The notes under the pieces are model-generated. The model did not search any database. It worked only from the letters and a program-made list of their open reading frames with translations, and was not told the DNA's origin. A stretch of DNA of 64,000 nt, taken from IMG/VR virus record IMGVR_UViG_3300008259_002957. One strand, 5' to 3'. Made by a program: the position numbers and the translations under genes. Source of the stretch: a virus. Lineage: Duplodnaviria > Caudoviricetes. Below, piece after piece: positions 13,199-64,000 of the stretch; positions within the stretch are counted from its first letter, which is position 1; every line of letters starts with the position of its first letter.

Positions 13199-13546
13199 AT
13201 GGACGAAAAACTAAAACAAGCACTTGATTTTAGTAATTATATGATCACACTAAACAATCAAAAACGTGTTTTAAAAGAACAATATCAAAATGATATTGTA
13301 TATTATTTCAACGGTGGCCAGTTTACAGTAAAACAAGAGTTAGTTAGTTTCTGTCAAGCACTTATTGCTTTAAAGCAAACTGAAACAATCCTAGTTGATG
13401 ATAACGGAATACCAGTAGAAATTGAAGAGTTGTTTGAATTTACCAAAAGTATCGTTGGTGTTTACTTTGCAGCAACCAACAAATATTTAATTGAATACAA
13501 CAAATTAAAAAGCAACAGAACAGTTGAAGGTATAATCGATTTATGA
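13199..13546 (+). CDS. Hypothetical protein, possibly a tail-fibre assembly chaperone
   Basis: 115 aa, predicted helical. The pattern NGGQF...ILVDDNGIPVEI..L loosely recalls DUF4376-type fibre-associated proteins (weak resemblance). Confidence 0.35.
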   Translation: MDEKLKQALDFSNYMITLNNQKRVLKEQYQNDIVYYFNGGQFTVKQELVSFCQALIALKQTETILVDDNGIPVEIEELFEFTKSIVGVYFAATNKYLIEYNKLKSNRTVEGIIDL

Positions 13547-14391
13547 GCAAAGGTGTTTTGCTTATCGCAAGAAATAACAGCGAAGTTGATTATGTAAAAC
13601 AAGCAGTATTTTCGGCAAAGCGTATTAAAAATTACTTAAACTTACCGGTTAGTATTATAACAGACAATGTACAATATCTTAATGAAAGATACACAGATTC
13701 AATGTCTGTGTTTGATAAAGTTATTGAACTAGAAAAAGAATCTTCATATACATATAAAAAATACTACGACGGATCTTGGACTAGAAAAAATCTTGAATTT
13801 AAAAATACAAGTAGAAGCAGTGTATTTGATTTAACTCCTTACAACGAAACACTCCTACTTGATACAGATTTTATAATTGCAAATAATTTATTGTCTAATT
13901 GTTTTACACAAGCACATGACTTTTTAATTTATCAAGATGCGTTTGATTTAGCCGGATGGAGAGATGTATCAGAATTTAACTCTATCAGCGAAGTTGGTCC
14001 AAATTTTTACTGGGCAACAGCAGTTTTTTTTAGAAAAACAGAAACTAATAAAGTTTTTTTTAACTTAATAAAACACATACAAGAAAATTGGTTACATTAT
14101 CGAAATCTTTATCAAATACGCACAAGTGTTTTTAGAAATGATCATGCTTTTAGTATAGCAATTCATATGATGAACGGATTTCAAGCAGGTGACTTTGCTA
14201 AACCAATGCCGGGTACAATGTATTATTCAATTGACAGAGACTTGTTAGTTGAAATCAACAATGAAAATTTTTTAATTTTATTAGAAAAAGAAAACGAAGC
14301 AGGAAAATACTTTCCTACAAAAATAAAAAACAGCAACGTTCATGTTATGAATAAGTTTAGTCTTGGTAGAGTAATAGACAATGACAGTTAA
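13543..14391 (+). CDS. GT-A fold glycosyltransferase (GT8-like)
   Basis: NLPVSIITD; TPYNETLLLDTD (DxD); FRNDHAFSIA; C-terminal HVMNK. Paralog of the next gene. Confidence 0.7.
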   Translation: MSKGVLLIARNNSEVDYVKQAVFSAKRIKNYLNLPVSIITDNVQYLNERYTDSMSVFDKVIELEKESSYTYKKYYDGSWTRKNLEFKNTSRSSVFDLTPYNETLLLDTDFIIANNLLSNCFTQAHDFLIYQDAFDLAGWRDVSEFNSISEVGPNFYWATAVFFRKTETNKVFFNLIKHIQENWLHYRNLYQIRTSVFRNDHAFSIAIHMMNGFQAGDFAKPMPGTMYYSIDRDLLVEINNENFLILLEKENEAGKYFPTKIKNSNVHVMNKFSLGRVIDNDS

Positions 14392-15220
14392 TTTTACAAT
14401 GCTTGCACAGAACAGCACACACAACTATGTAAAACAAGCATACTTGTGTGCATTAAGTATTCGTGCTACCAATCCTGACAGTAAAATTTGTCTTATTACC
14501 AACGACACACTTGACAAAAAACATTCAGCAGTGTTCGATGATATTGTTAGTATTCCTTGGGAAGATTCTGCACAGTCATCAGAATGGAAAGTAGAAAATC
14601 GGTGGAAAATTTATCATGCTACACCGTATGACCGTACAATTGTGATAGATACTGATATGTTAGTACTTGAAAATGTCGAGCATTGGTGGAATTTTCTAAA
14701 AAACTATAAGATATTTTTTACTACTAACGTAAAAACCTATAGAGGAACTCCTTTAACTAGCATCTATTATCGTAAAGCATTTAGAAATCATCAACTGCCC
14801 AATCTATACAGTGGATTTCATTACTTTGAAAAAAGCGACGAAGCACACAACTTTTATAAATGGCTTGAGTTAGTGATGAACAACTGGGAACTGTTTTATG
14901 GACAATATGCAGGTGGAAAGTATTTTCAAAAATTTGCCAGTGTAGATATTAGTGCTGCAATTGTAACTAAGATACTAGACTGTGAGGAGCGTGTTACAAG
15001 CAAAGCAACATATCCGCATTTTACTCATATGAAGATCCATACACAAGATTGGAAAATCTTAACCAGTGAACGGTGGCAAGACAAAGTAGGTGTATACTTA
15101 GATAATGATCTTGATCTAAAAATTGGAAATTACAAGCAAAACGGAATATTTCATTATACAGAAAAAGATTTTGTTACAGATGATGTTATAAAAATTTATG
15201 AAAGATATTTAAATGTTTGA
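14381..15220 (+). CDS. GT-A fold glycosyltransferase (GT8-like)
   Basis: KICLITND; TPYDRTIVIDTD (DxD); C-terminal IFHYTEK. Confidence 0.7.
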   Translation: MTVNFTMLAQNSTHNYVKQAYLCALSIRATNPDSKICLITNDTLDKKHSAVFDDIVSIPWEDSAQSSEWKVENRWKIYHATPYDRTIVIDTDMLVLENVEHWWNFLKNYKIFFTTNVKTYRGTPLTSIYYRKAFRNHQLPNLYSGFHYFEKSDEAHNFYKWLELVMNNWELFYGQYAGGKYFQKFASVDISAAIVTKILDCEERVTSKATYPHFTHMKIHTQDWKILTSERWQDKVGVYLDNDLDLKIGNYKQNGIFHYTEKDFVTDDVIKIYERYLNV

Positions 15221-15797
15221 AAGTATTCTTTATGTTTCAACTAAACGATATGTCTACTTCGACGAAGATGGTAATTTAACTGCGGTATCAAATGTTAATA
15301 CTGAGCCAGGTAACTATGTCGAAGTTGAATTTGCAGACATTGCAAATTTAATTACTGGTAAAGAACACTTTTTTCATTATTATGTAGCGTTTGATACTGT
15401 TTCTAAAAGTTATGTATTAAAACATAAACTTAACGAAGAAGATTTTACGTTTGATGTAAACAATCAAATATATAAAATTCCTAATAGTAGTGCAAGAACT
15501 GATATCAAAATCATACAAGACATCCCTAATAAAAAATGGACAATTGTGTTAGATGAAATCATTAGAGATAATTTTAAATCTAAAAAGATGATTTTTACAA
15601 AATCTCTTAACTTTAGTTTTACACGATACAACGACCCACATCAACTGGAAAAGTTTTTAACTATAGAATTGAATTCACTAATTGAACAAGATTTACATAT
15701 TGACTTTGAAAACCAAATAGAACTTGACCCAAACGCATTAAGTGTATATACTATAAAACGTCTAGAAACATATTCGCATGAGGTATTAAATGGGTAA
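15213..15797 (+). CDS. Hypothetical protein
   Basis: 194-aa ORF overlapping both neighbours; no motif recognised. Confidence 0.6.
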   Translation: MFESILYVSTKRYVYFDEDGNLTAVSNVNTEPGNYVEVEFADIANLITGKEHFFHYYVAFDTVSKSYVLKHKLNEEDFTFDVNNQIYKIPNSSARTDIKIIQDIPNKKWTIVLDEIIRDNFKSKKMIFTKSLNFSFTRYNDPHQLEKFLTIELNSLIEQDLHIDFENQIELDPNALSVYTIKRLETYSHEVLNG

Positions 15798-16719
15798 ATT
15801 TAGAGTGCTTGACTATGATATAATTTATTTGTCATATGACGAGCCAAACGCTGAAAAAAATTATGCAGACTTGTGTAAAAAAATTCCATGGGCAAAACGT
15901 GTACATGGTGTCAAAGGCAGTGATGCTGCACACAAAGCCTGTGCTAGACTAAGCGAAACTGACAGATTCATCACAGTCGACGGCGATAATGTTATCAGCC
16001 AAGAATTTCTTACAAAAGAATTTGATTTTGACGAAAACAGAGATCTAGAAAAGTGTGTTATTAGTTGGACTGCCCGTAATACAATTAATGGATTAATGTA
16101 TGGCAATGGCGGCCTAAAATGTTGGCCAAAAGAATATGTTTTGAACATGCGTACACACGAAAACGCAGATCCTAACAATCCACATGCACAGGTAGATTTT
16201 TGCTGGGATCTTGAATATATCCAAATGAACAGTTGTTATAGTGAAATCTACAACAACGCTACACCGCAACAAGCATGGCGTGCAGGATTTAGAGAAGGTG
16301 TTAAAATGGCACTGGACCGTGGTGTCAAGCCGACTGTAGAAGCATTTAAAAAGAATCATTGGAAAAATCTACACAGACTTTATATTTGGCTCATGGTTGG
16401 CGCAGATGTTGAGAACGGTATGTGGGGCATATACGGTGCTAGAGAAGGCCTTTATAAAACCATGCTTACTGACTGGGATTATGTAAATGTTCGTGACTTT
16501 GATTGGCTAAATGAGTATTGGGAAAACACTGTTACTAAAAAAGTAGACGAAGAAAATCTTGTTCGTAAGTGTGAAGACTTAGCAGACGTACTTATTCCAG
16601 TTCTAGATTTGCCGATTGCAGCATATCCACTAGAAGCAGATCAAAGTAAATTCTTTAAAACCGTTTATCAAAACCCAGCAAGAACTACTAATCAGCAGTT
16701 CATAGATAGAGAAGATTAA
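15790..16719 (+). CDS. GT-A-like glycosyltransferase (homolog of the C-terminal domain of 60750..62393)
   Basis: YDIIYLSYDEP.A...AKRVHGVKG...TDRFITVDGD (DxD)...NGL.YGNGGLK...AWRAGFRE.VK. Confidence 0.55.
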   Translation: MGKFRVLDYDIIYLSYDEPNAEKNYADLCKKIPWAKRVHGVKGSDAAHKACARLSETDRFITVDGDNVISQEFLTKEFDFDENRDLEKCVISWTARNTINGLMYGNGGLKCWPKEYVLNMRTHENADPNNPHAQVDFCWDLEYIQMNSCYSEIYNNATPQQAWRAGFREGVKMALDRGVKPTVEAFKKNHWKNLHRLYIWLMVGADVENGMWGIYGAREGLYKTMLTDWDYVNVRDFDWLNEYWENTVTKKVDEENLVRKCEDLADVLIPVLDLPIAAYPLEADQSKFFKTVYQNPARTTNQQFIDRED

Positions 16720-18101
16720 TGTCAAAAACACAGGATTACATTAAAAATGTAAACGACGTTACTACACGACATTTTAGCCCAACATTTTGTTTTGCTAAAT
16801 GGCATCATACAACAATTTATTTGCAAACTGGAGAAACACACAGTTGTTATCATCCTGCCCCTCACAAAATTTCAGTAGATGAATTGTTAACCAATCCTAG
16901 TGCATTACACAATACACAGCAAAAAAAGCAAGAGCGTAGAGAAATGCTCGAGGGCAAACAACCAAAAGGTTGTCAATATTGCTGGAACATTGAAAATATG
17001 GGCAAAGACTACGTAAGTGATAGACACATACGCAGTGCTAGTATCTATAACGAACAACGTCTACAAGAAATTAAATTTAATCCTTGGGACTTTAACGTAA
17101 ATCCTGAGTATATTGAAATTTCATTTGGTAACGAATGTAACTTCCGTTGTGGATATTGCCATCCTAAGGCCAGTAGCCGCTTTCACAATGAAATACGACA
17201 GCACGGTCCGTATGATATGGTAAACAATCATCGCTGTGACATTGACTGGTTTAAAGTCTATGATGAAGATAACAATCCTTATCTTCATGCTTGGTGGAAA
17301 TGGTGGCCGGAGGTTAGTAAAACTCTGAACATTTTACGTGTTACTGGCGGCGAACCAACAATTCAAAAAAGTACATACAAACTATTTGATTTACTAGAGC
17401 AAGATCCTAAGCCCAATCTCGAACTAAACGTCAACAGCAACCTTGGCGGCAAAGAACGTCAACTTGAAAAGTTTACTGATGCTGTAAACAGTTTGCTATC
17501 TCAAAATAAGATTAAACAATTTAAGTTATTTACAAGTGTTGACACTTGGAATGAACGTGCTGAATACATTCGTGATGGCCTTGACATAGAAGTATTTGAA
17601 AGAAACTTAGATTATTTTTTGCGTAATACAACTGCTCCAGTTACATTTATGATTACGTTTAATATTTTTAGTGTAACTACGTTTCAAACTCTGCTTGAAA
17701 AAATTCTCGAATGGCGTCGTAAATACAACGATGTTGAAAGCAGTCGTTGGCAGCGTATTCATTTTGATACACCTTATTTAAAAGAACCTCTACAATACGA
17801 CATCAATATTCTTCCTAAAGAACGATATATGCAGTATATGGAACAGCATCTACAGTTTATCAAAGACAACGTTCAAGAAGGTAGCAAAGTTCATTTTAGT
17901 GAACTTGAATATGAAAAGTTTAGACGTGTAGTTGATTACATGCGTAGCACAGAATATGCTCCTGAAAAAATACACGAAGGTAGAAAAGACTTTTGGAATT
18001 TCTTTAAAGAACAAGATCGTAGACGTAACATAGATTTTGAATCTACTTTTCCTGAAATGAACGATTTTTTCCAACTGTGTAAGCAAGCAGCAAATGGATA
18101 A
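16719..18101 (+). CDS. Radical SAM protein, N-terminal Cys-motif subfamily (type A)
   Basis: CNFRCGYC; VTGGEP; N-terminal FCFAKW...CYHP...CQYC. Confidence 0.85.
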   Translation: MSKTQDYIKNVNDVTTRHFSPTFCFAKWHHTTIYLQTGETHSCYHPAPHKISVDELLTNPSALHNTQQKKQERREMLEGKQPKGCQYCWNIENMGKDYVSDRHIRSASIYNEQRLQEIKFNPWDFNVNPEYIEISFGNECNFRCGYCHPKASSRFHNEIRQHGPYDMVNNHRCDIDWFKVYDEDNNPYLHAWWKWWPEVSKTLNILRVTGGEPTIQKSTYKLFDLLEQDPKPNLELNVNSNLGGKERQLEKFTDAVNSLLSQNKIKQFKLFTSVDTWNERAEYIRDGLDIEVFERNLDYFLRNTTAPVTFMITFNIFSVTTFQTLLEKILEWRRKYNDVESSRWQRIHFDTPYLKEPLQYDINILPKERYMQYMEQHLQFIKDNVQEGSKVHFSELEYEKFRRVVDYMRSTEYAPEKIHEGRKDFWNFFKEQDRRRNIDFESTFPEMNDFFQLCKQAANG

Positions 18102-19320
18102 AGATTACTTATTAAACAAGAGCAAAACGTTTTGCATGTTTCCGTGGATACATCTCAATGTTACTCCGCTAGGTAATGTTTATCCTTGCTGTAGTTCTGA
18201 TTATACAGATCCTTTTGCTAACGTTAAAGATGCTTCACTTGCTGAAATTTTTAATAATGACCGAATGAAGCAATTGCGTTTAGATATGTTGTCTGACAAA
18301 AATAATAAAATTTGTACATACTGCTACAAACACGAAGAAAGTTCGCCGTTTAGTTTTAGGAAATATAGTATAGAACACTTTGGCAAAGACTTTGATGAGT
18401 TAGTTACTTTAACAAACAGTGACGGAAGTATGCCACAATTTTCTATGAAATACTTTGATGTAAGATTTTCTAACATCTGTAACATGAAGTGTCGTACTTG
18501 TGGTGCAGAATTTTCCAGCCAATGGGCTCAAGAAATGAAGCAACACGAAGCAGTTAGCAAAGATTATAGAATTATAAATCACGCCGATAGTACAGGTCAA
18601 CTTTTAGAAGAAATTAAAAATCAAGTTGAAAATATTGATCTAGCATACTTTGCTGGCGGCGAGCCACTAATTACAGAAGAACATTATATAATTCTTGAAG
18701 AAATGATTCGCAAAGGTGTAAACAAAAATATTACACTTCGTTACAATACTAATATGAGTAATTTTAAATATAAAAAATACAACGTACTTGATCTTTGGAG
18801 TAGATTTAAGCGTGTAGAAATCTCAGCAAGTATTGATCACTACGGAGAACGTGCTGAATATATACGTCACGGAACAGACTGGGCTGTTGTAGAATCTAAT
18901 TTAAAGTCTATTAGAGACTTAGATTACATTGACTATCAGTACAACACAGTACTAAGTGTTTTTAATTATGCAACACTCGATCAATTTTATAACTATCTTA
19001 TTGAAAAAGATCTGTTGCGTAAAAAAGACATGATTAGCATCTATAGAGCGTTAACTCCTTCTTATTATGCTGCAACAATTTTACCAAAATCTATCAAGCA
19101 ATTTGGAACAGACAAATTAAATGATTTGCATGATTTTATGATTGCTGGAGATTGGTATCAAGCAATGCATATTCAAGATGCTATTAGATTTACAAATCAA
19201 ACAGACGAATGGGATAAAGAACGCGAACAGTTTACACATCATACACAAAGACGTGATAAAATTCGTGGAGAAAGTTTTACAAGTGTGTTTCCAGAATTGA
19301 GTGAAATGTTAAATGGATAA
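18094..19320 (+). CDS. Radical SAM protein (type A, N-terminal SPASM/twitch-like motif)
   Basis: FCMFPW...YPCC...CTYC, then CNMKCRTC and FAGGEP. Confidence 0.9.
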   Translation: MDKDYLLNKSKTFCMFPWIHLNVTPLGNVYPCCSSDYTDPFANVKDASLAEIFNNDRMKQLRLDMLSDKNNKICTYCYKHEESSPFSFRKYSIEHFGKDFDELVTLTNSDGSMPQFSMKYFDVRFSNICNMKCRTCGAEFSSQWAQEMKQHEAVSKDYRIINHADSTGQLLEEIKNQVENIDLAYFAGGEPLITEEHYIILEEMIRKGVNKNITLRYNTNMSNFKYKKYNVLDLWSRFKRVEISASIDHYGERAEYIRHGTDWAVVESNLKSIRDLDYIDYQYNTVLSVFNYATLDQFYNYLIEKDLLRKKDMISIYRALTPSYYAATILPKSIKQFGTDKLNDLHDFMIAGDWYQAMHIQDAIRFTNQTDEWDKEREQFTHHTQRRDKIRGESFTSVFPELSEMLNG

Positions 19321-20596
19321 AGAAGAATTATTAAAGAAGAATCGGGCATTTTGTATTTTACCTTGGATTCACATGCACGTATGGCCAAATGGCAACGCAA
19401 TGCCTTGCTGTATTTCCGATAGTACACAACCGTTTGGAAACTTAAAAGACAACAGTATTGAAGAAGTTTGGAACAGCGAAAAATACAAAGAATTGCGTTT
19501 GGCGATGCTGGAAGGCAAAAAACTTGATGTATGTAGCCGTTGTTATGAACTCGAAGATAGTACTTATATTTGGACGCTAAGAAAAAATCACAACCATTGG
19601 TTTGGTGAAAAACACTTTGACTTGGTAGAAAAAACAAAAGACGACGGCAGTATTGATGAATTTCGCATGGCATACTTAGACATACGTTTTTCAAATATCT
19701 GTAATATGAAGTGTCGCAGTTGTGGACCTGAACTAAGCAGTCAACATGCCAAAGAATTTAAAGATTTGTATGGAGAACACGAACTTGCTCGTATGCTAAA
19801 AAACGATGGCAAGATTGTAGTTAATATTGCTAAAGAAAATAACTTTTGGAATGACTTAACAAAGTATTTGCCTGACATTGAAGAAGTATATTTTGCAGGC
19901 GGAGAAGCACTTATCACAGACGAACATTATCAAATTCTTGACTATTGGCTAGAAAATAACAAGCGTGATGTTCGTCTAAGATATACAACTAACTTTAGTA
20001 ATTTTAGATACAAGCAAAAGTCTATTATAGACTATTGGCAAGAATTTTCAGACATTCAAGTCAGCGCAAGCCTTGACTGTAATGGTTATAGAGCAGAATA
20101 TTCTAGACACGGAACAGTATGGAATACAATTGAACGTAACAGACAAGAAATGTTAGAACGTGTACCTCACGTACATTTCGAACTAACACCCACAGTCAGT
20201 CTTTATAATGCCTGGAACTGGCCGGACTTTCACATGGATTGGGTTGAGCGTGGATTAGTTGATATTGAAAATTGCAGACTTAATATGCTTACTGGACCAG
20301 ACTTTATGAGAATTGACAACGTTCCGGAAAGTGTTAAAATCGAATTAAGAGCAAAATATCTTGATTATAAATCTTGGGCATTTGAAAAAATAAAAGATCG
20401 AGCAAAGAACAAGCCAGAAATAATTAAAGATGTAATTGGAAAGATTGATAGTGTAGTTCAGTTTATGAATACTGGAACAGAGAATAAAGAAAAGTTAAAG
20501 CAGTTTATTGAAAACAATAATAATCTTGATCGATATAGAAAAGAAAACTTTTGGGCAGTATTTCCTGAAATGTCATGGTTAAAACAATATGAGTGA
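19313..20596 (+). CDS. Radical SAM protein (type A)
   Basis: FCILPW...MPCC...CSRC, then CNMKCRSC and FAGGEA. Confidence 0.9.
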   Translation: MDKEELLKKNRAFCILPWIHMHVWPNGNAMPCCISDSTQPFGNLKDNSIEEVWNSEKYKELRLAMLEGKKLDVCSRCYELEDSTYIWTLRKNHNHWFGEKHFDLVEKTKDDGSIDEFRMAYLDIRFSNICNMKCRSCGPELSSQHAKEFKDLYGEHELARMLKNDGKIVVNIAKENNFWNDLTKYLPDIEEVYFAGGEALITDEHYQILDYWLENNKRDVRLRYTTNFSNFRYKQKSIIDYWQEFSDIQVSASLDCNGYRAEYSRHGTVWNTIERNRQEMLERVPHVHFELTPTVSLYNAWNWPDFHMDWVERGLVDIENCRLNMLTGPDFMRIDNVPESVKIELRAKYLDYKSWAFEKIKDRAKNKPEIIKDVIGKIDSVVQFMNTGTENKEKLKQFIENNNNLDRYRKENFWAVFPEMSWLKQYE

Positions 20597-21551
20597 ACTA
20601 TTTAAAATAACACCGATCGAAGACAAGTATATGAGTCTTACTTGGCAAGTAAACAATTTTTGTAACTATCAGTGTAGTTATTGTAACCCAGGTAATTGGA
20701 GTGGTACATCACGTAACAATGGTAATCTAGATTCTTATAAGCGTAATGTAAGAAATATCTTTCAACAATATCAAGACAGAGGTTACAGATATTTTAAAAT
20801 ATTTTACAGCGGCGGCGAGCCCACACATTGGGAAAACTTTATTCCTCTAACAGAATACTTAAAAGCGGAATTAGGTGATAATTTAACTGTTGCAGTTAAT
20901 ACAAATCTAAGTCGTCCTTTGAGATATTGGGAACAACACTATCATCTATTTGATGACATAGTTGCAAGTTTTCATATTGAATATGTTAAACCTGATAGGT
21001 ACATTGAAAACGCAGCATTTTTGTGTGACAAAGTAGATTATCTTTGCACAAAAATGCTAATGCATGAAGAACGCTTTTGGGAAGTTGTTGAATTTGGTAA
21101 TCGTGTAAGAAATGAAGTGCTGAACTATAATTTAGAGTGGACACCTTTATTTGACGAAATGAGTGTTAATGCAGGACCGTGGAAATACTCTGATCCTGCT
21201 AAAGAAAAGTTTTTAAGAGAAGCACAGTTTGAAACTGTAATGCGTAAAACCAAACCTTACAGAACAAATCGAGCAATTAGTTTAGCACATTATACAGATT
21301 CTGTAGAGCCAGTAAATAGTAATAAGATTATTTCAGCAAGACAAAACTTTTTTGCAGGCTGGCGCTGTTCGGTTGATGATGCACTGTTTATCAATCCAAT
21401 TGGACAAATTAGCAGTGCTAGTTGTGGAGTTGGAAACAACCACGGAAATATCTTAAATGAAAATTTAAAGTTTAATCTAAACCCTGTAATTTGTAGCAAG
21501 GAACACTGTCACTGTGGTACCGATATCATCATTCCTAAAGAAAAAATATAA
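20589..21551 (+). CDS. Radical SAM protein (type B, C-terminal Cys cluster)
   Basis: CNYQCSYC; YSGGEP; C-terminal FAGWRC...ASC...PVICSKEHCHC. Confidence 0.9.
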   Translation: MSELFKITPIEDKYMSLTWQVNNFCNYQCSYCNPGNWSGTSRNNGNLDSYKRNVRNIFQQYQDRGYRYFKIFYSGGEPTHWENFIPLTEYLKAELGDNLTVAVNTNLSRPLRYWEQHYHLFDDIVASFHIEYVKPDRYIENAAFLCDKVDYLCTKMLMHEERFWEVVEFGNRVRNEVLNYNLEWTPLFDEMSVNAGPWKYSDPAKEKFLREAQFETVMRKTKPYRTNRAISLAHYTDSVEPVNSNKIISARQNFFAGWRCSVDDALFINPIGQISSASCGVGNNHGNILNENLKFNLNPVICSKEHCHCGTDIIIPKEKI

Positions 21552-46086: not shown

Positions 46087-46262
46087 GCGAACCGGTTATT
46101 ACAGACGAGTTTTATTTAAAAAAGTTCATGCAGTTACAACAAGCAAATGTGGTGCTGTGGAGAAAATTACACAATATTAAAGAAAATGAAGATCTCAGAG
46201 CAACTATTGAAACTTATTTAGGCGACGACTTTTTTAATAACTTAGATGACTTAGTAGGATGA
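46083..46262 (+). CDS. Small hypothetical protein (59 aa, not in the ORF track)
   Basis: MSEPVITDEFYLKKFMQLQQ...DDLVG*; ATGA overlaps at both ends fill the gap exactly. Confidence 0.65.
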   Translation: MSEPVITDEFYLKKFMQLQQANVVLWRKLHNIKENEDLRATIETYLGDDFFNNLDDLVG

Positions 46263-48598: not shown

Positions 48599-48603
48599 AA
48601 CAA

Positions 48604-48619
48604 TAATTAGCGATAAGTA
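48604..48619. promoter_or_regulatory. Back-to-back variant late elements (TAATTA on -, TAAGTA on +), each 5 nt before an ATG
   Basis: - strand: TAATTA-TTGTT-ATG (48598); + strand: TAAGTA-TGTTT-ATG (48625). Confidence 0.55.
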
Positions 48620-48624
48620 TGTTT

Positions 48625-57393: not shown

Positions 57394-59240
57394 TGAAAAG
57401 TGTGTATTTGTTTCAAGTAAATTATCAAATGGGTTACGGAAACTTTTCTAGTCAAAGTTTACCATATAGTATTGCTGCGGTCTGGTCATATGCAGAACAG
57501 TTTGATATAGTAAAACAAAACTTTGATGTAAAGGATTGTTTTTTTAAACGTGAACCTGTTGATTTGGTTATCACTAAAATACATGATCCAGAAATTTGTC
57601 TCTTTAGTAACTATATTTGGAACGAACAATACAATTTTCAATTGGCAAAAAAAATAAAAGATAAATGGCCAAACTGTTTAATTGTGTTTGGCGGCCCGCA
57701 GGTTGGCGAAAAAGCAGGACACAAACTTTTACAAAAAAAGTTTATAGATAGTATTATAATTAACGAAGGCGAAAAGTCTTTGTATTCGTTATTAACTGAC
57801 TACATTACTACTGGAATAGTTAAAGAAACATATCAATTGCATCAACGTGTTGATGTTGAAGAAATGCCAAGTCCTTATATAAACAGCAACATTTTAAACA
57901 AGTTAGTCCAAGAAAATAAAAATGTAAAATTTTCAACAACCATAGAAACAAATAGAGGCTGTCCTTTTGCTTGTACATTCTGTGACTGGGGTAGTCTAAC
58001 TCAAAGTAAAATTAAAAAATTTAATTTAGAAAAAGTATTTGCTGAGTTAGATTGGGTTGCAAAAAATAAAATAGAATACATTTATATTGCTGATGCTAAC
58101 TTTGGTGTTTTTTATGAACGTGACAAACTTATTGTAGAATATCTAGCCAAGTTAAAAACAGAAACAGGCTATCCTCACGGAGTTACTGCTACTTGGTATA
58201 AAAACAGTGCTGAAAAAACTATTGAATTAGTTAAAATACTGCACAGTGTAGGACTTAATAGAGGTCTTACATTAAGTGTTCAAAGTATGAATGACGATAC
58301 GTTAACAAACATTAAACGTAAAAATATGGAAATATCTCAGTTATCACAGATGTACAAAGAATGTGACAAACAAGGTGTGACATATTATACAGAGTTTATT
58401 TTGGGTATGCCATACGAAACTAAACAAAGTTGGAGAGAAGGTCTTTGCGAAGCCATACAAGCAGGATGTCATTATTTCTTAGATGTGTTTCCCTTAGAAA
58501 TACTTAAAAACAGTGAGATGGCCACTGAAGTACTTGATCACGAAATGGCAGTGGAAACATATTACACAGTGTTTAATGGTCAGTTGACTAACATTCCAGA
58601 AATTCACAACTACGTAATTGCAACAAAATACATGAACAAATCGGATTACATTGATTCTTGGTTGTGGTATTGGTTAATAATGAACTTTCATAATTATAAC
58701 TGGACGCAAGTATTGGCTAAATTTGCAAACAAACATCTTGGTATTGATTATATTGACTTTTATGAAAACTTTTTTAATAATTGTATTTTAAAAGAAGATT
58801 TTTTTCTATCACTGTATAATAAACAAAAAACCGATTTAGAAGAATTCTTTTGGAATAAAAAAATTACAGACGTTTTTGTTAATGACAATGTTACAGTTAA
58901 TTACACTCAAATTGAATGGCATAAAAATAGAAACACGGTTCAAACTAAAATTGAACAGTGGGCTAAAAAATACTTTTCTACAGTTGACAACAATTTGTTA
59001 AACGACCTACTCAATTTTAATAAATCATACACAACAGACATTTCACGAAAACATGCTATAAGTGGTGAGTTTAATTATAATTTAAACGAGTTTTGTAATT
59101 TTAACGACAAGTTAATACAAAATAAAACAACATATAGATTTGATATATCTATACCTTGGGACACAGATATAGACTTTAAAGAAAAATTGTTCTATAAAAA
59201 CAGAAGTGGTTTTAGTGTAGCAAAAATAACAAAGTTATGA
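57393..59240 (+). CDS. Cobalamin-binding radical SAM protein (class B methyltransferase-like)
   Basis: N-terminal LPYSIA...FSNYIWN...IVFGGP; TNRGCPFACTFCDW; ADANFG; EFILGMP.ET. Confidence 0.9.
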   Translation: MKSVYLFQVNYQMGYGNFSSQSLPYSIAAVWSYAEQFDIVKQNFDVKDCFFKREPVDLVITKIHDPEICLFSNYIWNEQYNFQLAKKIKDKWPNCLIVFGGPQVGEKAGHKLLQKKFIDSIIINEGEKSLYSLLTDYITTGIVKETYQLHQRVDVEEMPSPYINSNILNKLVQENKNVKFSTTIETNRGCPFACTFCDWGSLTQSKIKKFNLEKVFAELDWVAKNKIEYIYIADANFGVFYERDKLIVEYLAKLKTETGYPHGVTATWYKNSAEKTIELVKILHSVGLNRGLTLSVQSMNDDTLTNIKRKNMEISQLSQMYKECDKQGVTYYTEFILGMPYETKQSWREGLCEAIQAGCHYFLDVFPLEILKNSEMATEVLDHEMAVETYYTVFNGQLTNIPEIHNYVIATKYMNKSDYIDSWLWYWLIMNFHNYNWTQVLAKFANKHLGIDYIDFYENFFNNCILKEDFFLSLYNKQKTDLEEFFWNKKITDVFVNDNVTVNYTQIEWHKNRNTVQTKIEQWAKKYFSTVDNNLLNDLLNFNKSYTTDISRKHAISGEFNYNLNEFCNFNDKLIQNKTTYRFDISIPWDTDIDFKEKLFYKNRSGFSVAKITKL

Positions 59241-60680
59241 ATACAGCGGAATAAATTTTGTTATTCCGTTGACATTTACTTCCAACCAACTGTCTGGGTT
59301 TGATGTATTAGCAGGAGATTTAGAAGTTTCTCCTACAACAGTAACATCTTTAATTACACTTTTTAAATGCCCATCTGAATTTATAGACAATGCTTCGGTT
59401 AATTCGCCTGCATTGTTAGAAACTTTTATTGAAAAATGACCCGGTACCTTTCCTGACGAAACAATTGCATTGCTAGAAACAGACGTTTCGATTAAAGCAA
59501 CTGGTACACACGAAATACTATAATTAGTGCCACTTTGAGCACCAAATATAATACTTTGTATTCCGTCTCCGGGTTGTACAGGCTCTGGGTTAGAAATAGA
59601 TCCTCTAGTTTTAATAAGAGCAAGAGTTCCTGGGAGATTACTGTCTTTTGACACACAAATAGTCAACGGGCCGTAATCGTCGTTGATGTCTTTGTCTGAA
59701 ACAAATAATGCAGTACCGCTACTTCCAACATCTTTATCACCTACTTGAAAGTTATTAAATCTTTGAATATCCGATACAACGTTTCCGAAAAAATTTCCAT
59801 AAAACGTATTAGTTTGATAATCGTAACTAATTCCGTTGGTTTCGGATAACAAGTTTGCTTTAATAATCTGTATATCAGTATCTAAAATAACTTCACCGAG
59901 ATTGTTATAAACATTTCCTGCAAACGTTCCTACAAACTCGCCGACGATAGAATCAGTTACTACAATATCTTCAGCATTGATTTTTTTAACAACTAGTTCG
60001 TTTAACTCTGCAGAGTTAGTAAAAGAATCGTACATAAGATTCCCATTTGCATTATAAACATTGCCTTTGACATTTCCGTAGATGAGGTTATTTACTTCGA
60101 GATCATCTAACCGTAAACTGTTGCTATTTGAATCATAAACAGTATCGCCTGCGTGATCAACAATATTGCCTAAAAAATTACCAATGAATATTTTGTTTTC
60201 CGAATCAAGTACCATGGTTCCGTTTTCGTCAGCAACATTTCCAAAAAATATTCTTTGATTTTTATCAACAATTATATTTCCAAATTCGTCAACTACGTTT
60301 CCAACAACATTACCATGGAATAATTTTTCATTCTTGTCGACAACCAAATTTCCAATATCATCAACAATATTTCCAAGAACATTACCGTAGAATATTTGTT
60401 GTGAGTTGTCGATGACTATATTTCCTGAGTCGTCAAGAACATTACCGGTAACATTACCGTAGAATGTTTTTTCTGAAATATTAAGAACTACATTTCCTAA
60501 GTCGTCGATTACATTTCCAACAAAATTTCCGTGGAAAGTTTTGTTTTCGTAGTCAACTATGATGTAATCGTCAACATCGACTATGTTGGCTTTGATAATA
60601 CCTCTAAAGCTATCTACTATAAGAGTACTGTCCATACCTTCAATATTAATTCTATATGACGCACCATCGTAAAGTTCCAT
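59235..60680 (-). CDS. Repeat-rich fibre-like protein
   Basis: About 24-aa GN-rich repeats (KTFYGNVTGNVLDDSGNIVIDNSQ); GGAGAG SD and a TAAATA element upstream. Confidence 0.6.
   Translation of the reverse strand: MELYDGASYRINIEGMDSTLIVDSFRGIIKANIVDVDDYIIVDYENKTFHGNFVGNVIDDLGNVVLNISEKTFYGNVTGNVLDDSGNIVIDNSQQIFYGNVLGNIVDDIGNLVVDKNEKLFHGNVVGNVVDEFGNIIVDKNQRIFFGNVADENGTMVLDSENKIFIGNFLGNIVDHAGDTVYDSNSNSLRLDDLEVNNLIYGNVKGNVYNANGNLMYDSFTNSAELNELVVKKINAEDIVVTDSIVGEFVGTFAGNVYNNLGEVILDTDIQIIKANLLSETNGISYDYQTNTFYGNFFGNVVSDIQRFNNFQVGDKDVGSSGTALFVSDKDINDDYGPLTICVSKDSNLPGTLALIKTRGSISNPEPVQPGDGIQSIIFGAQSGTNYSISCVPVALIETSVSSNAIVSSGKVPGHFSIKVSNNAGELTEALSINSDGHLKSVIKDVTVVGETSKSPANTSNPDSWLEVNVNGITKFIPLYS
60125..60545 (-). 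repeat. Six tandem coding repeats of about 72 nt (24 aa; one shortened), boundaries approximate
   Basis: Consensus K.F.GN(V/F).GN(V/I).D..GN.V.D; further degenerate copies continue toward the C-terminus. Confidence 0.75.
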
Positions 60681-62393: not shown

Positions 62394-63294
62394 ATTACTA
62401 GATAGATTTGAATTACTGTATCCATATAATACAAAACTATCTGACTTACGTAGATCTTATATCGATCGTGATTTAACCAGTATTTTTAGATTATTGCCTA
62501 ATACAGTATCTGGTGATATCGACGATTTACGAAAAGCAGTGTTAGAAAAAAATCTACACAGTATCTTTAGACTTGTTGATGACGAAGATTTACGTAAATT
62601 AGTTATCGAAGACAATGTATGGAAACTATGGCCTATTCTTGAAAGATATGTTGATACACAGTTTGTTGCTGCATTTAAAAACTTTTTTGTTAACAATATA
62701 AAAATTGACCCCGATTGTTTTAGTAGAGGACAACTTCAAAGTAAATTATGGTTAGTTGAACAACTAAAAAAGTGTGACGTAGATTTAGGCACAGTATTTT
62801 TATGTGCAGGTTGGTATGGAACACTAGCAGTGATGCTATTTGAAAGCGGTATAAAAGTTGAAAAAATTCGTAGTTTTGACATAGATACTACAACTGTTGA
62901 TATAGCAGAAACATTTAACAAGCCGTGGTTCACAGATCAATGGTGTTATAAAGCCTTAATAAATAATATTCACGATATTGATTACAAAGAGCATACATGG
63001 CAATATTGGAGTAACACTAATAATAGAATGAGTTATCCTATAACTGATACGCCAAATACTATCATTAATACTAGTTGTGAACATATAGAAAATTATGCAG
63101 AATGGTATAATAAAATACCTCTAGGAAAACTAGTTGTGTTACAAGGAAATAATTATTTTGAAATCTTAGAACACGTTAATTGTTCAAGTAATCTCCAAGA
63201 ATTTAGTAATAAATCTCCTATGACAAAAACACTCTACGAAGGCGAATTAGAATTGCCTAAATATAAAAGGTTTATGAAAATTGGATTTAGATAA
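62377..63294 (+). CDS. Class I methyltransferase-fold protein with N-terminal extension (paralog of 31053..31658)
   Basis: FSRGQLQSKLWL; FLCAGWYG; SFDID; INTSCEH. Confidence 0.6.
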   Translation: MLEIYELLDRFELLYPYNTKLSDLRRSYIDRDLTSIFRLLPNTVSGDIDDLRKAVLEKNLHSIFRLVDDEDLRKLVIEDNVWKLWPILERYVDTQFVAAFKNFFVNNIKIDPDCFSRGQLQSKLWLVEQLKKCDVDLGTVFLCAGWYGTLAVMLFESGIKVEKIRSFDIDTTTVDIAETFNKPWFTDQWCYKALINNIHDIDYKEHTWQYWSNTNNRMSYPITDTPNTIINTSCEHIENYAEWYNKIPLGKLVVLQGNNYFEILEHVNCSSNLQEFSNKSPMTKTLYEGELELPKYKRFMKIGFR

Positions 63295-63505
63295 GTTAAG
63301 TTTACGAGAACTGCAAACAGAGTGTGCAAGAGCACTAAGTACAATGCAAGCAACAAATAACAATATAACTCAATTTAATAAAGTAGCACATCACGATAGT
63401 CAACGTTGGTATCGAGCAGTTATAACTTGGTATGTCGAACAATATGGCGATTTACCTAGTAAAACAGGACCTGGGAAGGACGTAACGTTAATACACGATG
63501 TATGA
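63281..63505 (+). CDS. Small hypothetical protein
   Basis: 74-aa ORF (TTG start, AAAGG upstream) coupled to both neighbours. Confidence 0.6.
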   Translation: MDLDKLSLRELQTECARALSTMQATNNNITQFNKVAHHDSQRWYRAVITWYVEQYGDLPSKTGPGKDVTLIHDV

Positions 63506-64000
63506 ATATAAAGATATAAGAACAATACACTTAGAAGTCACACAGAATTGTCAAGCAAGTTGTCCTATGTGCGATCGTAATCAAAACGGTGGCGCATTAA
63601 ATCCTCACATTAATTTAGATGAACTTACAATTGGTGATGTCAAACGTATATTTACACCCGAGTTTATTGCACAGTTAAATACTATGTATATGTGCGGCAA
63701 TCTAGGAGATCCTATTGTTGCTCGAGATACTTTAGAAATCTTTACATATTTTAGAGAACACAATCCTAATATGTGGTTGAGCATGAATACCAATGCTGGT
63801 GCAAAAACTCCTGCATGGTGGCATGCACTTGCTAAAACTCTAGGAACAAATGGTGCAGTTATATTCAGTGTTGACGGATTAAAAGATACAAATCATATAT
63901 ATCGTCAGGGAGTAAACTGGGACAATGTTTATCGTAGTATGAAAGCATTTATCGCTGCCGGCGGCAGAGCTCGTTGGGACTTCCTTATATTTGAGCACAA
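63498..64000 (+). CDS. Radical SAM protein (type C), 3'-truncated by the window edge; not in the ORF track
   Basis: MYEYKDIRTIHLEVTQNCQASCPMCDR...CGNLGDP...SVDGL; frame still open at 64000. Confidence 0.9.
   Translation, partial: MYEYKDIRTIHLEVTQNCQASCPMCDRNQNGGALNPHINLDELTIGDVKRIFTPEFIAQLNTMYMCGNLGDPIVARDTLEIFTYFREHNPNMWLSMNTNAGAKTPAWWHALAKTLGTNGAVIFSVDGLKDTNHIYRQGVNWDNVYRSMKAFIAAGGRARWDFLIFEH

Follow-up and report, generated by a model that had tools for sequence, protein, structure and literature searches.

The question at the locus studied here is what is made by a long run of enzyme genes placed directly behind tail-fiber genes, and where the product goes. The window is a stretch of 64,000 nt (IMG/VR record IMGVR_UViG_3300008259_002957) from an uncultured freshwater myovirus, a T4-related jumbo phage of the Atu_ph07/PA5oct/Rak2-like kind.

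Extent and Gene Content of the Island

As shown in Table 1, virion structural and tail-fiber genes precede the island. The two fiber-tip paralogs that adjoin it contain 26–30% Ser+Thr, vs. 10.9% in the island enzymes. Positions 13199–64000 hold 54 tightly packed, intact ORFs of at least 115 aa each and two small ORFs (46083–46262 and 63281–63505), in agreement with the first-pass annotation of an enzyme-rich island of more than 50 kb and about 55 genes after the tail genes. The island is in fact even larger: in identical metagenome contigs it extends past 64000 to ~81.4 kb, giving a total of ~68 kb and 28 radical SAM genes. A polyamine-type operon lies downstream of it. As first annotated, no replication genes are visible within the window. 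None of the 54 island proteins has a membrane-spanning hydrophobic segment, and no flippase, polymerase, ligase or polyprenyl-phosphate transferase was found among the 54 genes, which points to a cytoplasmic pathway.

Table 1. Features of the window and the evidence for their assignment.
Position	Strand	Feature	Basis or remark
3..13141	+	Virion structural and tail-fiber genes: giant structural protein, 206-aa protein, three Collar-domain fiber paralogs, two Ser/Thr-rich paralogs	Pfam Collar 3.7e-17; PHROG virion-structural and tail-fiber matches; paralogy
11146-12075, 12113-13141	+	Ser/Thr-rich fiber-tip paralogs
13148..13176	+	sigma70-type promoter, TTGACA, 17 nt, TATTAT	11/12 matches; in 58-nt spacer ahead of core operon
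13199..16719	+	Core, transferase part	115-aa protein, two GT8-like paralogs, 194-aa protein, GT-A enzyme
13543-14391, 14381-15220	+	GT8-like paralogs	Lead only (Atlas)
15790-16719	+	GT-A-fold enzyme, invariant D-G-D	AF2 pLDDT 85; Foldseek; VIA Z 9.5
16719..21551	+	Core, radical SAM part	Three N-terminal-twitch (NF033640) genes, one family B gene
21514-22281, 23421-24440, 25415-26194		SGNH-like genes	GCS motifs; first, DUF6071 1.3e-10
22250-23599	-	GT10-like, adjoins SGNH-like genes	Lead only
24414-25394	-	StrB1-type amidinotransferase	PDB 1bwd, full length, E 1e-64; CPRD, H-x-DST, FHC-x-TLD blocks kept
26177..26764	-	Short DegT/DnrJ/EryC1-type PLP protein, 195 aa	Pfam 5e-15; Lys-containing block kept
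26788-27831, 27883-28959	+	GT10-like tandem pair	Leads only; paralogy 1e-82
29025-29936	+	NDP-sugar extended SDR (epimerase)	Pfam 1.6e-39; PDB GalE, RmlB, GDP-6-deoxymannose reductase
29915-31063 (+), 53209		GT10-like	Leads only
31053-31658, 62374-63294		Methyltransferase-fold candidates
31655, 40792(-), 49924		Family A radical SAM outside core	Pfam, NCBIfam, family graph, Cys motifs
33046, 34013, 38045(-), 39085(-), 51069(-)		Family B radical SAM outside core	51069 B-like
35052(-), 39969(-), 47313(-)		Genes without family assignment
36232-37008(-), 45211, 52083		Fe/2OG oxygenases: Asp/Arg-hydroxylase-type (first), TauD-type (52083)	Pfam
37020, 54351, 63498 onward		Family C radical SAM	54351 with SPASM; first part only of the last inside window
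42044..49931		Middle cassette	QueC-like ATPase, cupin/2OG-like genes, kinase-fold pair, cold-shock/2OG fusion, SDR-like pair
42044	-	PP-loop QueC-like ATPase	Pfam
42785		Fe/2OG, weak	E 0.087
43425-44111, 47888(-)		Kinase-fold pair	Model and Foldseek, best match WbdD; 47888 its paralog
44104, 44670, 49437		Fe/2OG	Motif only
45211		Cold-shock-domain/2OG oxygenase fusion	Pfam
46259, 46726		SDR-like pair
48619		Fe/2OG	Atlas; Asp_Arg_Hydrox look-alikes
55449-56354		Aminotransferase-like gene	Weak hints, E 0.02 and 0.22
56332-57393		Second amidinotransferase	Paralog of 24414-25394, 1e-55
57393		B12-binding radical SAM, KedN5-like C-methyltransferase family	NCBIfam NF033712 1e-60, below cut-off
59235..60680	-	Lone 481-aa Gly/Asn/Val-rich repeat protein	72-nt tandem repeats, ~5 copies; own TAAATA box
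60714-60742	+	Second sigma70-type promoter, distal GT-A/MTase operon	Ends 7 nt ahead of ATG 60750
60750-62393	+	Multi-domain GT-A gene	Three degenerate half-domains, one full GT-A domain
63281-63505	+	Small ORF, 74 aa

The count of 16 radical SAM genes in the window held: all match PF04055 and/or SPASM or NF033640, and CX3CX2C is kept in 16/16. All-against-all phmmer comparison separated them into four groups, families A (n = 6), B (n = 6) and C (n = 3) and a single B12-type gene. Family A is of the N-terminal-twitch type (NF033640), and its twitch domain finds its closest counterpart in BtrN, an aminoglycoside enzyme. Its three core members score 311–384 bits against NF033640 (cut-off 170) and carry four conserved N-terminal Cys in addition to CX3CX2C; orthologs of the core radical SAM genes in viral contigs show 51–85% identity. 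In relatives, N-twitch genes stand in tandem, 3 to 8 in a row. Bacterial homologs occur in secondary-metabolite-like surroundings, either with ACP, KS, KR, GT2 and PPTase or with PEP mutase. The B12-type C-methyltransferase relatives include a weak match to AprD4 (NCBIfam). The family C gene at 63498 is the first of a series that continues with more radical SAM genes past 64000.

Of the about nine GT-like genes proposed, the GT-A enzymes at 15790 and 60714 were substantiated, and the two GT8-like and five GT10-like genes are leads only. The nearest solved folds to the core GT-A enzyme include PBCV-1 A64R, STIV A197, SunS/ThuS, ppGalNAc-T and COLGALT1, that is, viral and protein-/peptide-glycosylating enzymes. 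The C-terminal half of the distal gene (60714–62393), called at 547 aa in identical contigs, is a paralog of this enzyme. Members of the GT10-like family in other phages are fused to Epimerase or MTase domains, which links the island to sugars.

Both amidinotransferases, the NDP-sugar epimerase/dehydratase and the kinase-fold gene at 43425, of which 47888 is a paralog, were confirmed; the amidinotransferases lend support to the idea of a guanidino, hence cationic, product. Together, the NDP-sugar SDR, the DegT-type protein, three GT-like families and the WbdD-like kinase fold bear out the suggested logic of unusual-sugar tailoring and glycosyl transfer. Other assignments stood in part. For the eight Fe/2OG-fold genes, three are supported by Pfam and one by Atlas, with one weak match and three motif-only cases. 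The DegT-type member of the two PLP enzymes was recovered, though it is just 195 aa long, and the other gives weak aminotransferase hints. Among the three SGNH genes, one has a domain match and the others GCS motifs. Support is weak or at motif level for the QueC-like gene and for both the SDR pair and the MTase-fold pair.

Two Promoter Classes

TAAATA late-type boxes were found at 9/21 unit heads vs. a 2.8% background (p 2e-9) and at 0/33 internal genes. The same box stands ahead of the scaffold gene and other bona fide structural genes. The claim that the island has late promoters thus applies to these nine units, but not to the core and distal GT-A/MTase operons, whose promoters are sigma70-type. 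Seven related contigs keep this promoter in its position ahead of the core operon (10–12/12 matches), although their spacers have diverged. Promoters of the sigma70 type represent the early class, and expression early in infection would be no less fitting for receptor masking or DNA modification than for virion decoration.

Conservation and Related Islands

Synteny extends to relatives. Dozens of viral contigs, as well as the cultured Ralstonia phage RsoM2USA, have the core cassette (small protein, two GT8-like proteins, 194-aa protein, GT-A enzyme and N-terminal-twitch radical SAM array) beside fiber genes. Homologs of its transferase part keep their order across IMG/VR contigs and in RsoM2USA ORF350–354. 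In close IMG/VR relatives the core comes after fiber or structural genes, and in four contigs (L014, L015, L030, and L032) after a homolog of the structural-neighbor gene 5201. In RsoM2USA, mass spectrometry identified the products of the neighboring ORF356 and ORF361 as virion proteins, and ORF348/347 are the same GT-A and MTase pair as 60714–63294. Core enzymes share 73–85% identity with those of relatives, vs. 41–68% for the fibers. The middle cassette is present in 14 viral contigs at 40–90% identity.

The cultured cyanophage S-SCSM2R carries a small version of the island, with a 66% identical amidinotransferase adjoined by a DegT homolog (51% identity) of the same length, 195 aa, as 26177–26764. 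Its authors labeled this mini-module "antibiotic synthesis genes," reported kdsA/kdsB, and detected the amidinotransferase and a 2OG oxygenase in CsCl-purified virions, while allowing for contaminants (PMC12801897). In pelagi- and cyanomyophages, hypervariable "host recognition clusters" linked to tail fibers have been described that include GT8-type transferases along with LPS-type genes and radical SAM cassettes (PMC7029224). The novelty expected for the island therefore holds in part: fiber-linked clusters of GT and radical SAM genes, and the S-SCSM2R mini-version, are published, whereas the literature searched contained no biochemical characterization. The island stands out by its exceptional size, its kind being already known in aquatic T4-like phages.

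A Probable Sugar-Tailoring System and Its Possible Acceptor

We conclude that the island probably performs sugar tailoring and glycosyl transfer. Our leading reading, with a probability of about one in three, is that it supplies the enzymatic side of a host recognition cluster, whose rare sugars may be transferred to a phage-encoded acceptor, most likely the adjacent tail-fiber or virion proteins. Such a system would be wholly cytoplasmic, converting host nucleotide-sugars into rare sugars for stepwise transfer by the island's own glycosyltransferases. The extended SDR (29025) or twitch-type radical SAM dehydrogenases/epimerases (BtrN-like family A) would yield keto-sugars or epimers, to which the DegT-type (26177) or aminotransferase-like (55449) proteins could add amines; the StrB1-type amidinotransferases (24414 and 56332) would turn these into guanidines with arginine as the donor. 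C-methylation by B12-radical SAM enzymes and hydroxylation by Fe/2OG oxygenases may follow, capping groups being put on or off by the PP-loop enzyme and the kinase-fold, MTase-fold and SGNH-like proteins, and GT8-like, GT-A and GT10-like proteins would assemble the chain. The sequence of reactions and the idea that the radical SAM enzymes act on sugars are inferred, and the acceptor most of all.

Several observations argue for a virion acceptor: the linkage to fiber and structural genes in IMG/VR relatives and RsoM2USA; late-type boxes shared with structural genes; the two S-SCSM2R enzymes in purified virions, possible contaminants as they are (PMC12801897); and the resemblance of the core GT-A to viral and protein-/peptide-glycosylating enzymes, together with the adjoining Ser+Thr-rich fiber tips. 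A core that is more conserved than the fibers and common to phages of very different hosts is also easier to reconcile with an acceptor that the phage encodes than with one specific to the host. Against a virion acceptor stand the conserved sigma70-type promoter of the core operon, its counterpart at the distal operon, and the GT8, WbdD-like kinase, MTase and Asp/Arg-hydroxylase families, typical of LPS pathways. Moreover, the 113 kb searched contain neither a nucleotidyltransferase nor any other enzyme of sugar activation, and 28 radical SAM enzymes are more than the proposed pathway explains.

Alternative Explanations

The same early promoter and LPS-like families (the GT8 lead, the WbdD-like fold and the Asp/Arg-hydroxylase family, which takes in LpxO/KdoO) would suit remodeling of the host envelope, a possible though doubtful alternative in which LPS core, O-chain or capsule is modified at the cytoplasmic face and exported by host machinery. 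The receptor of the neighboring fibers would then be masked, with superinfection exclusion early and fewer progeny lost on debris later, and linked receptor-binding and receptor-modifying genes would be evolutionarily sensible. This is how the glycosyltransferases of host recognition clusters have been read, as modifying the host O-chain (PMC7029224), and kdsA/kdsB in S-SCSM2R agree with it (PMC12801897). The lack of membrane protein, lipid-carrier transferase, flippase and ligase in the 54 genes, the late-type boxes at nine units and a core shared with a Ralstonia phage and conserved above the fibers, odd for host-specific glycan targets, speak against it; we also know of no LPS modification that requires radical SAM enzymes at such scale. 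The "antibiotic" label given in S-SCSM2R (PMC12801897) would fit a guanidino natural product, aminoglycoside-like or of another kind, that stays free of any macromolecule and might block rival phages or neighboring bacteria or act on the host. StrB1-type enzymes, BtrN-like twitch domains, the weak AprD4 match, DegT, kinase-fold proteins, SDRs and 2OG oxygenases all mirror aminoglycoside tailoring, and the surroundings of the bacterial N-twitch homologs are in line with this. Still, we consider it improbable: an enzyme of cyclitol formation, be it DHQ-synthase-like or an inositol-phosphate synthase, is absent from the 113 kb searched, neither an exporter nor a self-resistance gene was recognizable, nine GT-like genes are far above the usual for such pathways, and the conserved tight linkage with fiber genes would be unexplained.

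T4-type phages glycosylate their DNA by early-expressed transferases, and Campylobacter phages, which have amidinotransferase homologs, are a group known for non-canonical guanine replacement. Hypermodification of DNA (or RNA) with modified sugars or cationic groups, evading restriction, would accord with the early-type promoters of the core and distal operons, the fusion of a cold-shock (nucleic-acid-binding) domain with a 2OG oxygenase, the QueC-like enzyme and the polyamine-type operon. We assign it a low probability. TGT/DpdA, thymidylate-synthase-family and hydroxymethylase-family genes are absent from the 113 kb searched, a weak argument since this is ~1/3 of the genome. Many units have late-type promoters, the island sits within a structural module beside fibers, and known DNA glycosylation relies on families other than NDP-sugar enzymes and GT8/GT10-like transferases. 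Finally, SPASM/twitch enzymes are chiefly known for maturing peptides, and the window's radical SAM genes weakly match many such maturases (NCBIfam). Proteins are also the substrates of the Asp/Arg-hydroxylase and prolyl-hydroxylase-type families of oxygenases. The radical SAM enzymes and oxygenases might act on a fiber or virion protein in RiPP style (cross-links, epimerizations, methylations, hydroxylations), glycosylation being secondary; the tandem paralogs could serve many distinct sites, and the repeat protein inside the island, which may be a fiber-like structural protein, would be one candidate. This is very unlikely in our view, as neither an RRE/PqqD-like recognition domain nor a precursor-like small Cys-rich ORF was detected, collagen-like repeats suited to hydroxylation-glycosylation were not found, and the sole specific twitch-domain similarity is to a sugar/cyclitol enzyme. 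The repeat protein, for which no phage homolog was found, is not conserved alongside the enzymes: contigs L017 and L018 keep its neighbors without it.

The tandem GT10-like genes are separated by an epimerase gene stub of 14 codons (27836–27880), recognized by comparing its translation with the epimerase N-terminus.

Extent of the island and its radical SAM genes

Searches against Pfam, NCBIfam and the PDB, together with fold searches, bore out well the gene inventory that the first-pass annotation had drawn from sequence. All 16 genes called there as radical SAM enzymes gave Pfam or NCBIfam matches to radical SAM, SPASM or NF033640 models, and each of the 16 carries one CX3CX2C motif. The annotation had also described a biosynthetic island of more than 50 kb, running from the tail genes to position 64000. 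The enzyme block does reach 64000, but this position is no end, as identical metagenome contigs continue it to about 81.4 kb window-equivalent, with 12 more CX3CX2C-bearing genes beyond the window. In total, the island comprises about 68 kb of enzyme genes, among them 28 radical SAM genes (13 of family A, 8 of family B, 5 of family C and 2 of the B12 type). As far as could be found, this number in one 68-kb viral island is unparalleled.

An all-against-all phmmer comparison sorted the 16 window genes into four groups, given in the table with the other main features. In family A, the N-terminal-twitch (N-twitch) group, four conserved N-terminal Cys residues stand ahead of CX3CX2C and are invariant in the paralogue alignment. 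The twitch domain shows its greatest similarity to that of BtrN (E 2e-6), and no characterised member of the NF033640 family was found among solved structures or in the searchable literature. An assignment of family B as viperin-like or MoaA-like was rejected, the similarity being to the generic radical SAM core and far below the cut-offs.

After the last radical SAM gene, an operon follows on the opposite strand that looks, from its gene content, like a polyamine-type module adjoining the island; its saccharopine-dehydrogenase-like protein is questionably of the homospermidine-synthase type.

Main features of the island and its flanks (window coordinates unless a contig is named; (-), reverse strand)
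Feature	Position	Genes in window	Description
Virion and tail-fibre genes	3-13141		Giant structural protein, three Collar-domain paralogues, two Ser/Thr-rich paralogues
Sigma70-type promoter of the core operon	13148-13176		TTGACA, 17 nt, TATTAT
Core cassette	13199-21551		Small protein, two GT8-like, one without assignment, GT-A, N-twitch radical SAM array, family-B radical SAM
Predicted amidinotransferase	24414-25394(-)		Full-length StrB1 homologue
DegT-type PLP protein	26177-26764(-)		195 aa
NDP-sugar extended SDR	29025-29936		
Protein-kinase-like protein	43425-44111		Best match WbdD
Predicted amidinotransferase, paralogue	56332-57393		
Second sigma70-type site	60714-60742		Ends 7 nt before ATG 60750
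Radical SAM family A		6	NF033640 'twitch domain N-terminal', 248-390 bits against a cut-off of 170
Radical SAM family B		6	About 300-360 aa, C-terminal Cys clusters
Radical SAM family C		3	Weak C-terminal SPASM
B12-binding radical SAM enzyme		1	Related to KedN5-type C-methyltransferases
Post-island operon, opposite strand	Contig L122, 13382-21191 (about 81.4-89.2 kb window-equivalent)		Nitroreductase, saccharopine-dehydrogenase-like, two without assignment, AMP-binding enzyme, one without assignment, ornithine/arginine decarboxylase; S8 peptidase next

The phage and its habitat

The window has a G+C content of 33% and contains no tRNA genes. Its parent IMG/VR virus record is 113 kb long with a CheckV completeness of 32%, which implies a genome of roughly 350 kb. 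The 49 kb upstream code for a T4-type portal, prohead protease, scaffold, major head protein, baseplate hub and a gp46/gp47-like nuclease. The portal shows 52% identity to its counterpart in Sinorhizobium phage Phosso, about 50% to that of Agrobacterium phage Atu_ph07 and about 48% to those of the PA5oct group. The structural genes and the portal matches thus indicate an uncultured jumbo myovirus of the T4-related Atu_ph07/PA5oct/Rak2-like lineage. Among 50,697 phage records the complete window had no megablast match, nor did tblastn find one for a 796-aa upstream protein; close relatives are either absent among isolates or lie outside the collection searched.

Identical proteins were found in 48-68 blocks of a public assembly collection, and the DNA is present in sequencing runs from 14 studies, mostly lake or freshwater metagenomes; none of the matching runs from these studies was an RNA run. 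The island makes up roughly a fifth of the estimated 350-kb genome. This share, together with its occurrence in lake metagenomes of more than 12 studies, argues for a costly, selected function of an abundant virus.

Predicted sugar, guanidino and other tailoring enzymes

Both amidinotransferases predicted earlier were recovered. StrB1 is the inosamine-phosphate amidinotransferase of streptomycin synthesis, and the protein encoded at 24414 matches its structure (PDB 1bwd) with E 1e-64 over residues 6-323; matches to AGAT, SxtG and HsvA range from E 1e-31 to 1e-37. The alignment takes in the CPRD, H-x-DST and FHC-x-TLD blocks, which the paralogue keeps too, so that both belong, by prediction, to the StrB1/AGAT family. 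The Pfam model PF02274 itself gave no match. In the phage collection, full-length amidinotransferase homologues (about 25% identity) also occur in Campylobacter phages of the CP220/CPt10 group, in whose DNA guanine is replaced.

The NDP-sugar enzyme and the DegT-type protein were likewise found, the former as an extended SDR. Among the predicted Fe/2OG oxygenases, 36232(-), 45211 (a cold-shock-domain fusion), 52083 and 48619 matched oxygenase types, and four further candidates gave weak or motif-level similarity. The kinase fold was confirmed in a protein whose best match, WbdD, is a kinase capping a polymannose O-antigen. Membrane-like segments were absent from all 54 island proteins, and the 113-kb record contains no sugar-nucleotidyltransferase gene. 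For ten unassigned proteins, Pfam searches at E values up to 10 returned two weak hints; the cupin-like trio 44104/44670/49437 and the genes 35052(-), 39969(-), 13199 and 15213 had no family match.

The gene at 59235-60680(-) stands alone on the opposite strand within the enzyme island, has its own TAAATA box and codes for a 481-aa protein with about five repeats of 24 aa (72-nt DNA repeats) of the type F(H/Y)GN-V-x-GN. No homologues were detected in cultured phages or beside the conserved neighbour genes of relatives. A role of this Gly/Asn/Val repeat protein as a proteusin-like substrate was therefore rejected: it is not conserved with the enzymes and lacks phage homologues. Hydroxylation and glycosylation of the collagen type were also dismissed, there being no G-x-y runs in any frame of the available genome sequence.

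Glycosyltransferase-like genes

As a profile of the core GT-A family gave chance matches only against PDB sequences, a fold search was required. The model of the protein encoded at 15790-16719 (pLDDT 85) has a GT-A fold in residues 2-190, with a Foldseek probability of 1.0 and VIA Z scores of 8-9.5, values near 8 being reached also with nucleotidyltransferases of the same fold. The best fold matches were WrtF, SunS/ThuS, PBCV-1 A64R (PDB 2p6w), TarP, B4GALNT1 and STIV A197. In its D-G-D motif, D64 and D66 are invariant in 12 homologues, and on the strength of the model a transferase chemistry is likely.

The pair 13543/14381 and the set 22250/26788/27883/53209 (with 29915) belong to large phage-only families whose nearest named neighbours are GT8 and GT10. 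In other phages, proteins of the GT10-like family occur as fusions with an NDP-sugar epimerase or methyltransferase domain. Between two GT10-like paralogues, at 27836-27880, lies a 14-codon ORF (MKIFLTGASGFIGQ, then stop) that copies the N-terminus of the epimerase encoded at 29025; this stub is what is left of a tandem duplication that comprised a GT10-like gene and the start of the epimerase gene. The 547-aa product of 60750-62393 contains three degenerate copies of the N-terminal half of the GT-A domain, all without D-x-D, and then one complete domain. Its AFDB relatives (436-710 aa) have a GT-A-like domain in the C-terminal part.

A conserved core in a mosaic island

Synteny across related phages, which the annotation had proposed as a check, revealed a core order that recurs while radical SAM copy number and cassette order vary. 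Scanning IMG/VR with one N-twitch enzyme as query identified 29 viral contigs. The recurrent order is small protein, GT8-like, GT8-like, a further protein of no assigned family in some cases, GT-A, N-twitch array and family-B radical SAM, with three to eight genes in the array. Closer relatives have the core cassette immediately behind their fibre genes; in the four more distant contigs L014, L015, L030 and L032, the gene ahead of it is a homologue of the 206-aa gene located after that of the giant structural protein. Identity of the core enzymes among relatives amounts to 73-85%, against 41-68% for the fibres. An identical arrangement of core genes is present, as ORF354-349, in the cultured Ralstonia jumbo phage RsoM2USA, where it comes after fibre-like genes and is succeeded by a second GT-A gene and an MTase-fold gene that mirror 60714-63294 of the window. 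Mass spectrometry identified the products of ORF356 and ORF361, near this core, as virion proteins (PMC8504454).

The middle cassette (40792-49931) is kept at 40-90% identity in 14 further viral contigs with varying neighbours, and contigs of the same strain differ by split or additional ORFs. Taken with the duplication stub, these features show the island to be a patchwork in which conserved cassettes are duplicated, reshuffled and lost to decay. In contigs with window-identical proteins, the sites L039:6225-7183, L040:7387-8304 and L035:14803-15390 are variants, either natural or due to assembly. In one such contig the family-C gene 63498 is split into 268 + 53 aa, in another the MTase-fold gene 62374 into 153 + 117 aa, and a third has an additional 195-aa ORF between two radical SAM genes. 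Given these ORFs, some island genes may be dispensable.

Genome contigs were scanned with a four-member N-twitch alignment, the six-paralogue alignment being too divergent. Bacterial N-twitch neighbourhoods vary (fatty-acid/polyketide-like genes with GT2; GT2 with PEP mutase; unrelated genes) and point to no single substrate. Island genes at 45-72% identity also turned up in several contigs assigned to bacterial or archaeal MAGs (L105, L109 and others), for instance a 3.5-kb 'Thermoplasmata' contig and a 'Gammaproteobacteria MED685' contig; such contigs, several of them short and at 60-72% identity, probably represent phage DNA placed in the wrong bin. Three loci of a Haliscomenobacter MAG contain N-twitch, GT8-like, GT-A-like and 55449-like genes (31-49% identity) and belong either to a related giant phage or to a bacterial counterpart.

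Transcription signals

The earlier suggestion of late promoters holds for part of the island. TAAATA, the core of the T4 late box, occurs within 45 nt upstream of 9 of the 21 island unit heads (background 2.8%, p 2e-9) and of none of the 33 internal genes; structural genes, that for the scaffold among them, have it upstream as well. Of the canonical T4 late box TATAAATA there are fewer copies than expected (4 found vs. 11.8). Divergent gene pairs lie 11-45 nt apart at the junctions 24414/25415, 26764/26788, 37008/37020 and 42739/42785, and TAAATA stands 10-11 nt before the ATG of 24414(-), 26177(-), 37020, 42044(-) and 42785. The spacing of these five boxes and the short divergent junctions suggest that late transcripts may be leaderless.

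The core operon, on the other hand, has a conserved sigma70-type promoter. This element matches at 10-12 of 12 positions in the same place in seven related contigs, while the rest of the spacer has diverged; in the more distant contig L016 and in RsoM2USA, boxes of the TATAAATA or GTAAATA type occupy the place instead. Sigma70-like sites overall showed no enrichment, and we took seriously only the two that stand at the start of an operon, of which one is conserved phylogenetically. The second precedes ATG 60750, the start in the gene calls for the multi-domain GT-A gene. By these motifs the island appears wired to both promoter classes, and 'late expression' alone consequently fails as an argument.

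Proposed product, acceptor and alternatives

At the level of chemistry, nucleotide-sugar tailoring with glycosyl transfer is the likely function, and the glycan chemistry inferred in the first-pass annotation was reasonable, its choice of acceptor plausible. The full account, in which tailored sugars are transferred onto a phage-encoded acceptor, most likely the neighbouring fibre or other virion proteins, has by our estimate a probability of about one in three. Since no sugar-activating enzyme is present, the input would be host NDP-sugars. These would be oxidised or epimerised by the SDR and possibly by the twitch radical SAM enzymes, whose twitch is BtrN-like, then transaminated, and would receive an arginine-derived amidino group. 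C-methylation, hydroxylation, capping by phosphorylation or methylation and acyl handling would come next, and three GT families would build the chain.

A phage-encoded acceptor is the best single guess because all enzymes are soluble and because the core is more conserved than the fibres, common to phages of unrelated hosts and always within the structural module. That the acceptor belongs to the virion is suggested by the resemblance of the core GT-A to viral and protein-glycosylating enzymes and by the proteome of purified virions of the cultured cyanophage S-SCSM2R, in which an amidinotransferase (a second one) and a 2OG oxygenase were detected (PMC12801897). For glycosylation of virion proteins as such, the indications are indirect, namely the synteny, the solubility of the enzymes and the late-type boxes. 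The published reading of such clusters is instead remodelling of the host envelope (PMC7029224), with which the early-type promoter and the LPS-like families agree; given that the enzymes include no membrane step and that the core is conserved across hosts, we regard it as rather unlikely here. A free aminoglycoside-like product is improbable: it fits the enzyme set, but the cyclitol synthase of an aminoglycoside-type cluster (DHQ-synthase or inositol-phosphate-synthase family) is absent from the 113-kb record, about 32% of the genome, the 54 island proteins include no membrane exporter, and the linkage to fibres would have no reason.

Modification of DNA or RNA would accord with the early promoters, with the QueC-like gene and with the oxygenase fused to a cold-shock domain. 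We give it little probability; no TGT/DpdA or thymidylate-synthase-family (hydroxymethylase) match occurs in the 113 kb scanned, which cover about 32% of the genome without its replication part. Least probable of all is that the radical SAM enzymes modify protein in the manner of RiPP synthesis, conceivably on a large protein substrate; the two small ORFs (59 and 74 aa) are without a Cys-rich or repetitive core, Pfam gave no PqqD/RRE match, and no conserved substrate was found. The need for so many radical SAM enzymes remains unexplained by glycosylation of the virion. Stated more broadly, and quite tentatively, freshwater and soil jumbo phages of a widespread lineage may use their own soluble enzymes to attach a radical-SAM-tailored guanidino glycan to their tail fibres. 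If true, a phage outside the actinobacteriophages would glycosylate its virion, and the N-terminal-twitch family would be the basis of a new branch of radical SAM carbohydrate chemistry.

Comparison with known systems

The annotation knew of no biochemically characterised phage pathway of this size and composition; as a claim of novelty this needs correction, as host recognition clusters (HRCs) and a mini-module in S-SCSM2R are already on record. HRCs, the hyperplastic regions of pelagi- and cyanomyophages, average 34-45 kb, are hypervariable and lie in the structural module of a T4-type backbone; they hold tail-fibre genes, many glycosyltransferases (most often GT8), LPS-type sugar enzymes and radical SAM cassettes, and their function is a reading from sequence (Zaragoza-Solas et al., 2020, PMC7029224). 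T4-type backbone, adjacency to fibres, GT, LPS-type and radical SAM genes and variable content all recur here. The island differs in belonging to a freshwater Atu_ph07/PA5oct/Rak2-like jumbo lineage, in an enzyme part that by itself spans about 68 kb and includes 28 radical SAM genes (13 N-twitch), in its two StrB1-type amidinotransferases and in a conserved core cassette that has a sigma70-type promoter of its own, likewise conserved. The island is real, intact and conserved, an extreme case of a kind already known from phages though biochemically uncharacterised.

In S-SCSM2R, ORF301-310 encode in order a 2OG oxygenase, GTs, a DegT/AHBA-synthase-like protein, radical SAM, GT, 2OG oxygenase, an inosamine-type amidinotransferase and GT2, described by the authors as 'antibiotic synthesis genes' with their purpose unexplained (PMC12801897). 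This module shares with the island the 195-aa DegT-like protein (51% identity) and the amidinotransferase (66%). With about ten genes it has one radical SAM gene vs. 28 here and, unlike the island, lies among auxiliary metabolic genes (psbA, psbD), away from fibres.

Virus-encoded glycosylation of the virion occurs in chlorovirus PBCV-1 (A64R and partners), in Megavirinae with their fibril glycan clusters and on the capsid or tail of mycobacteriophages. Soluble GT-A enzymes and rare-sugar pathways, which in these systems work on virion proteins in the cytoplasm, are shared with the island, the latter known from genes alone; to our knowledge, none of them has radical SAM arrays or amidinotransferases. 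Aminoglycoside and aminocyclitol pathways convert alcohol to ketone, amine and guanidine, with StrB1 (streptomycin), BtrN (butirosin) and GenK-type B12-radical SAM C-methyltransferases. The full-length StrB1 homologue, BtrN-like twitch domain and B12-radical SAM enzyme of the island resemble these, whereas its twitch domain is N-terminal (permuted) and its many more GTs and radical SAM genes lie in a phage structural module. The flagellin O-glycosylation island of Campylobacter has about 50 genes, with paralogous families, and places amidino-bearing rare sugars on a filamentous surface protein; its PseA-type PP-loop amidotransferase parallels the QueC-like gene of the phage island. It is bacterial rather than viral and includes a nonulosonic-acid synthase, not seen in the phage island, and we know of no radical SAM arrays in it.

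Knowledge of product and acceptor would establish which function host recognition clusters serve in aquatic myophages, could yield new oxygen-independent sugar chemistry and new cationic glycans, and may explain how large phages tune adsorption or evade exclusion. Because two cultured phages are available, RsoM2USA with the core and S-SCSM2R with a mini-version, the question is directly testable. Small radical SAM clusters also exist in KVP40-like vibriophages: the cultured Vibrio phage K566 (contig L123) has, at 161.5-167 kb and away from the fibres, three annotated radical SAM genes with hypothetical genes, at least one of them being an N-twitch relative (24% identity, 96% coverage).
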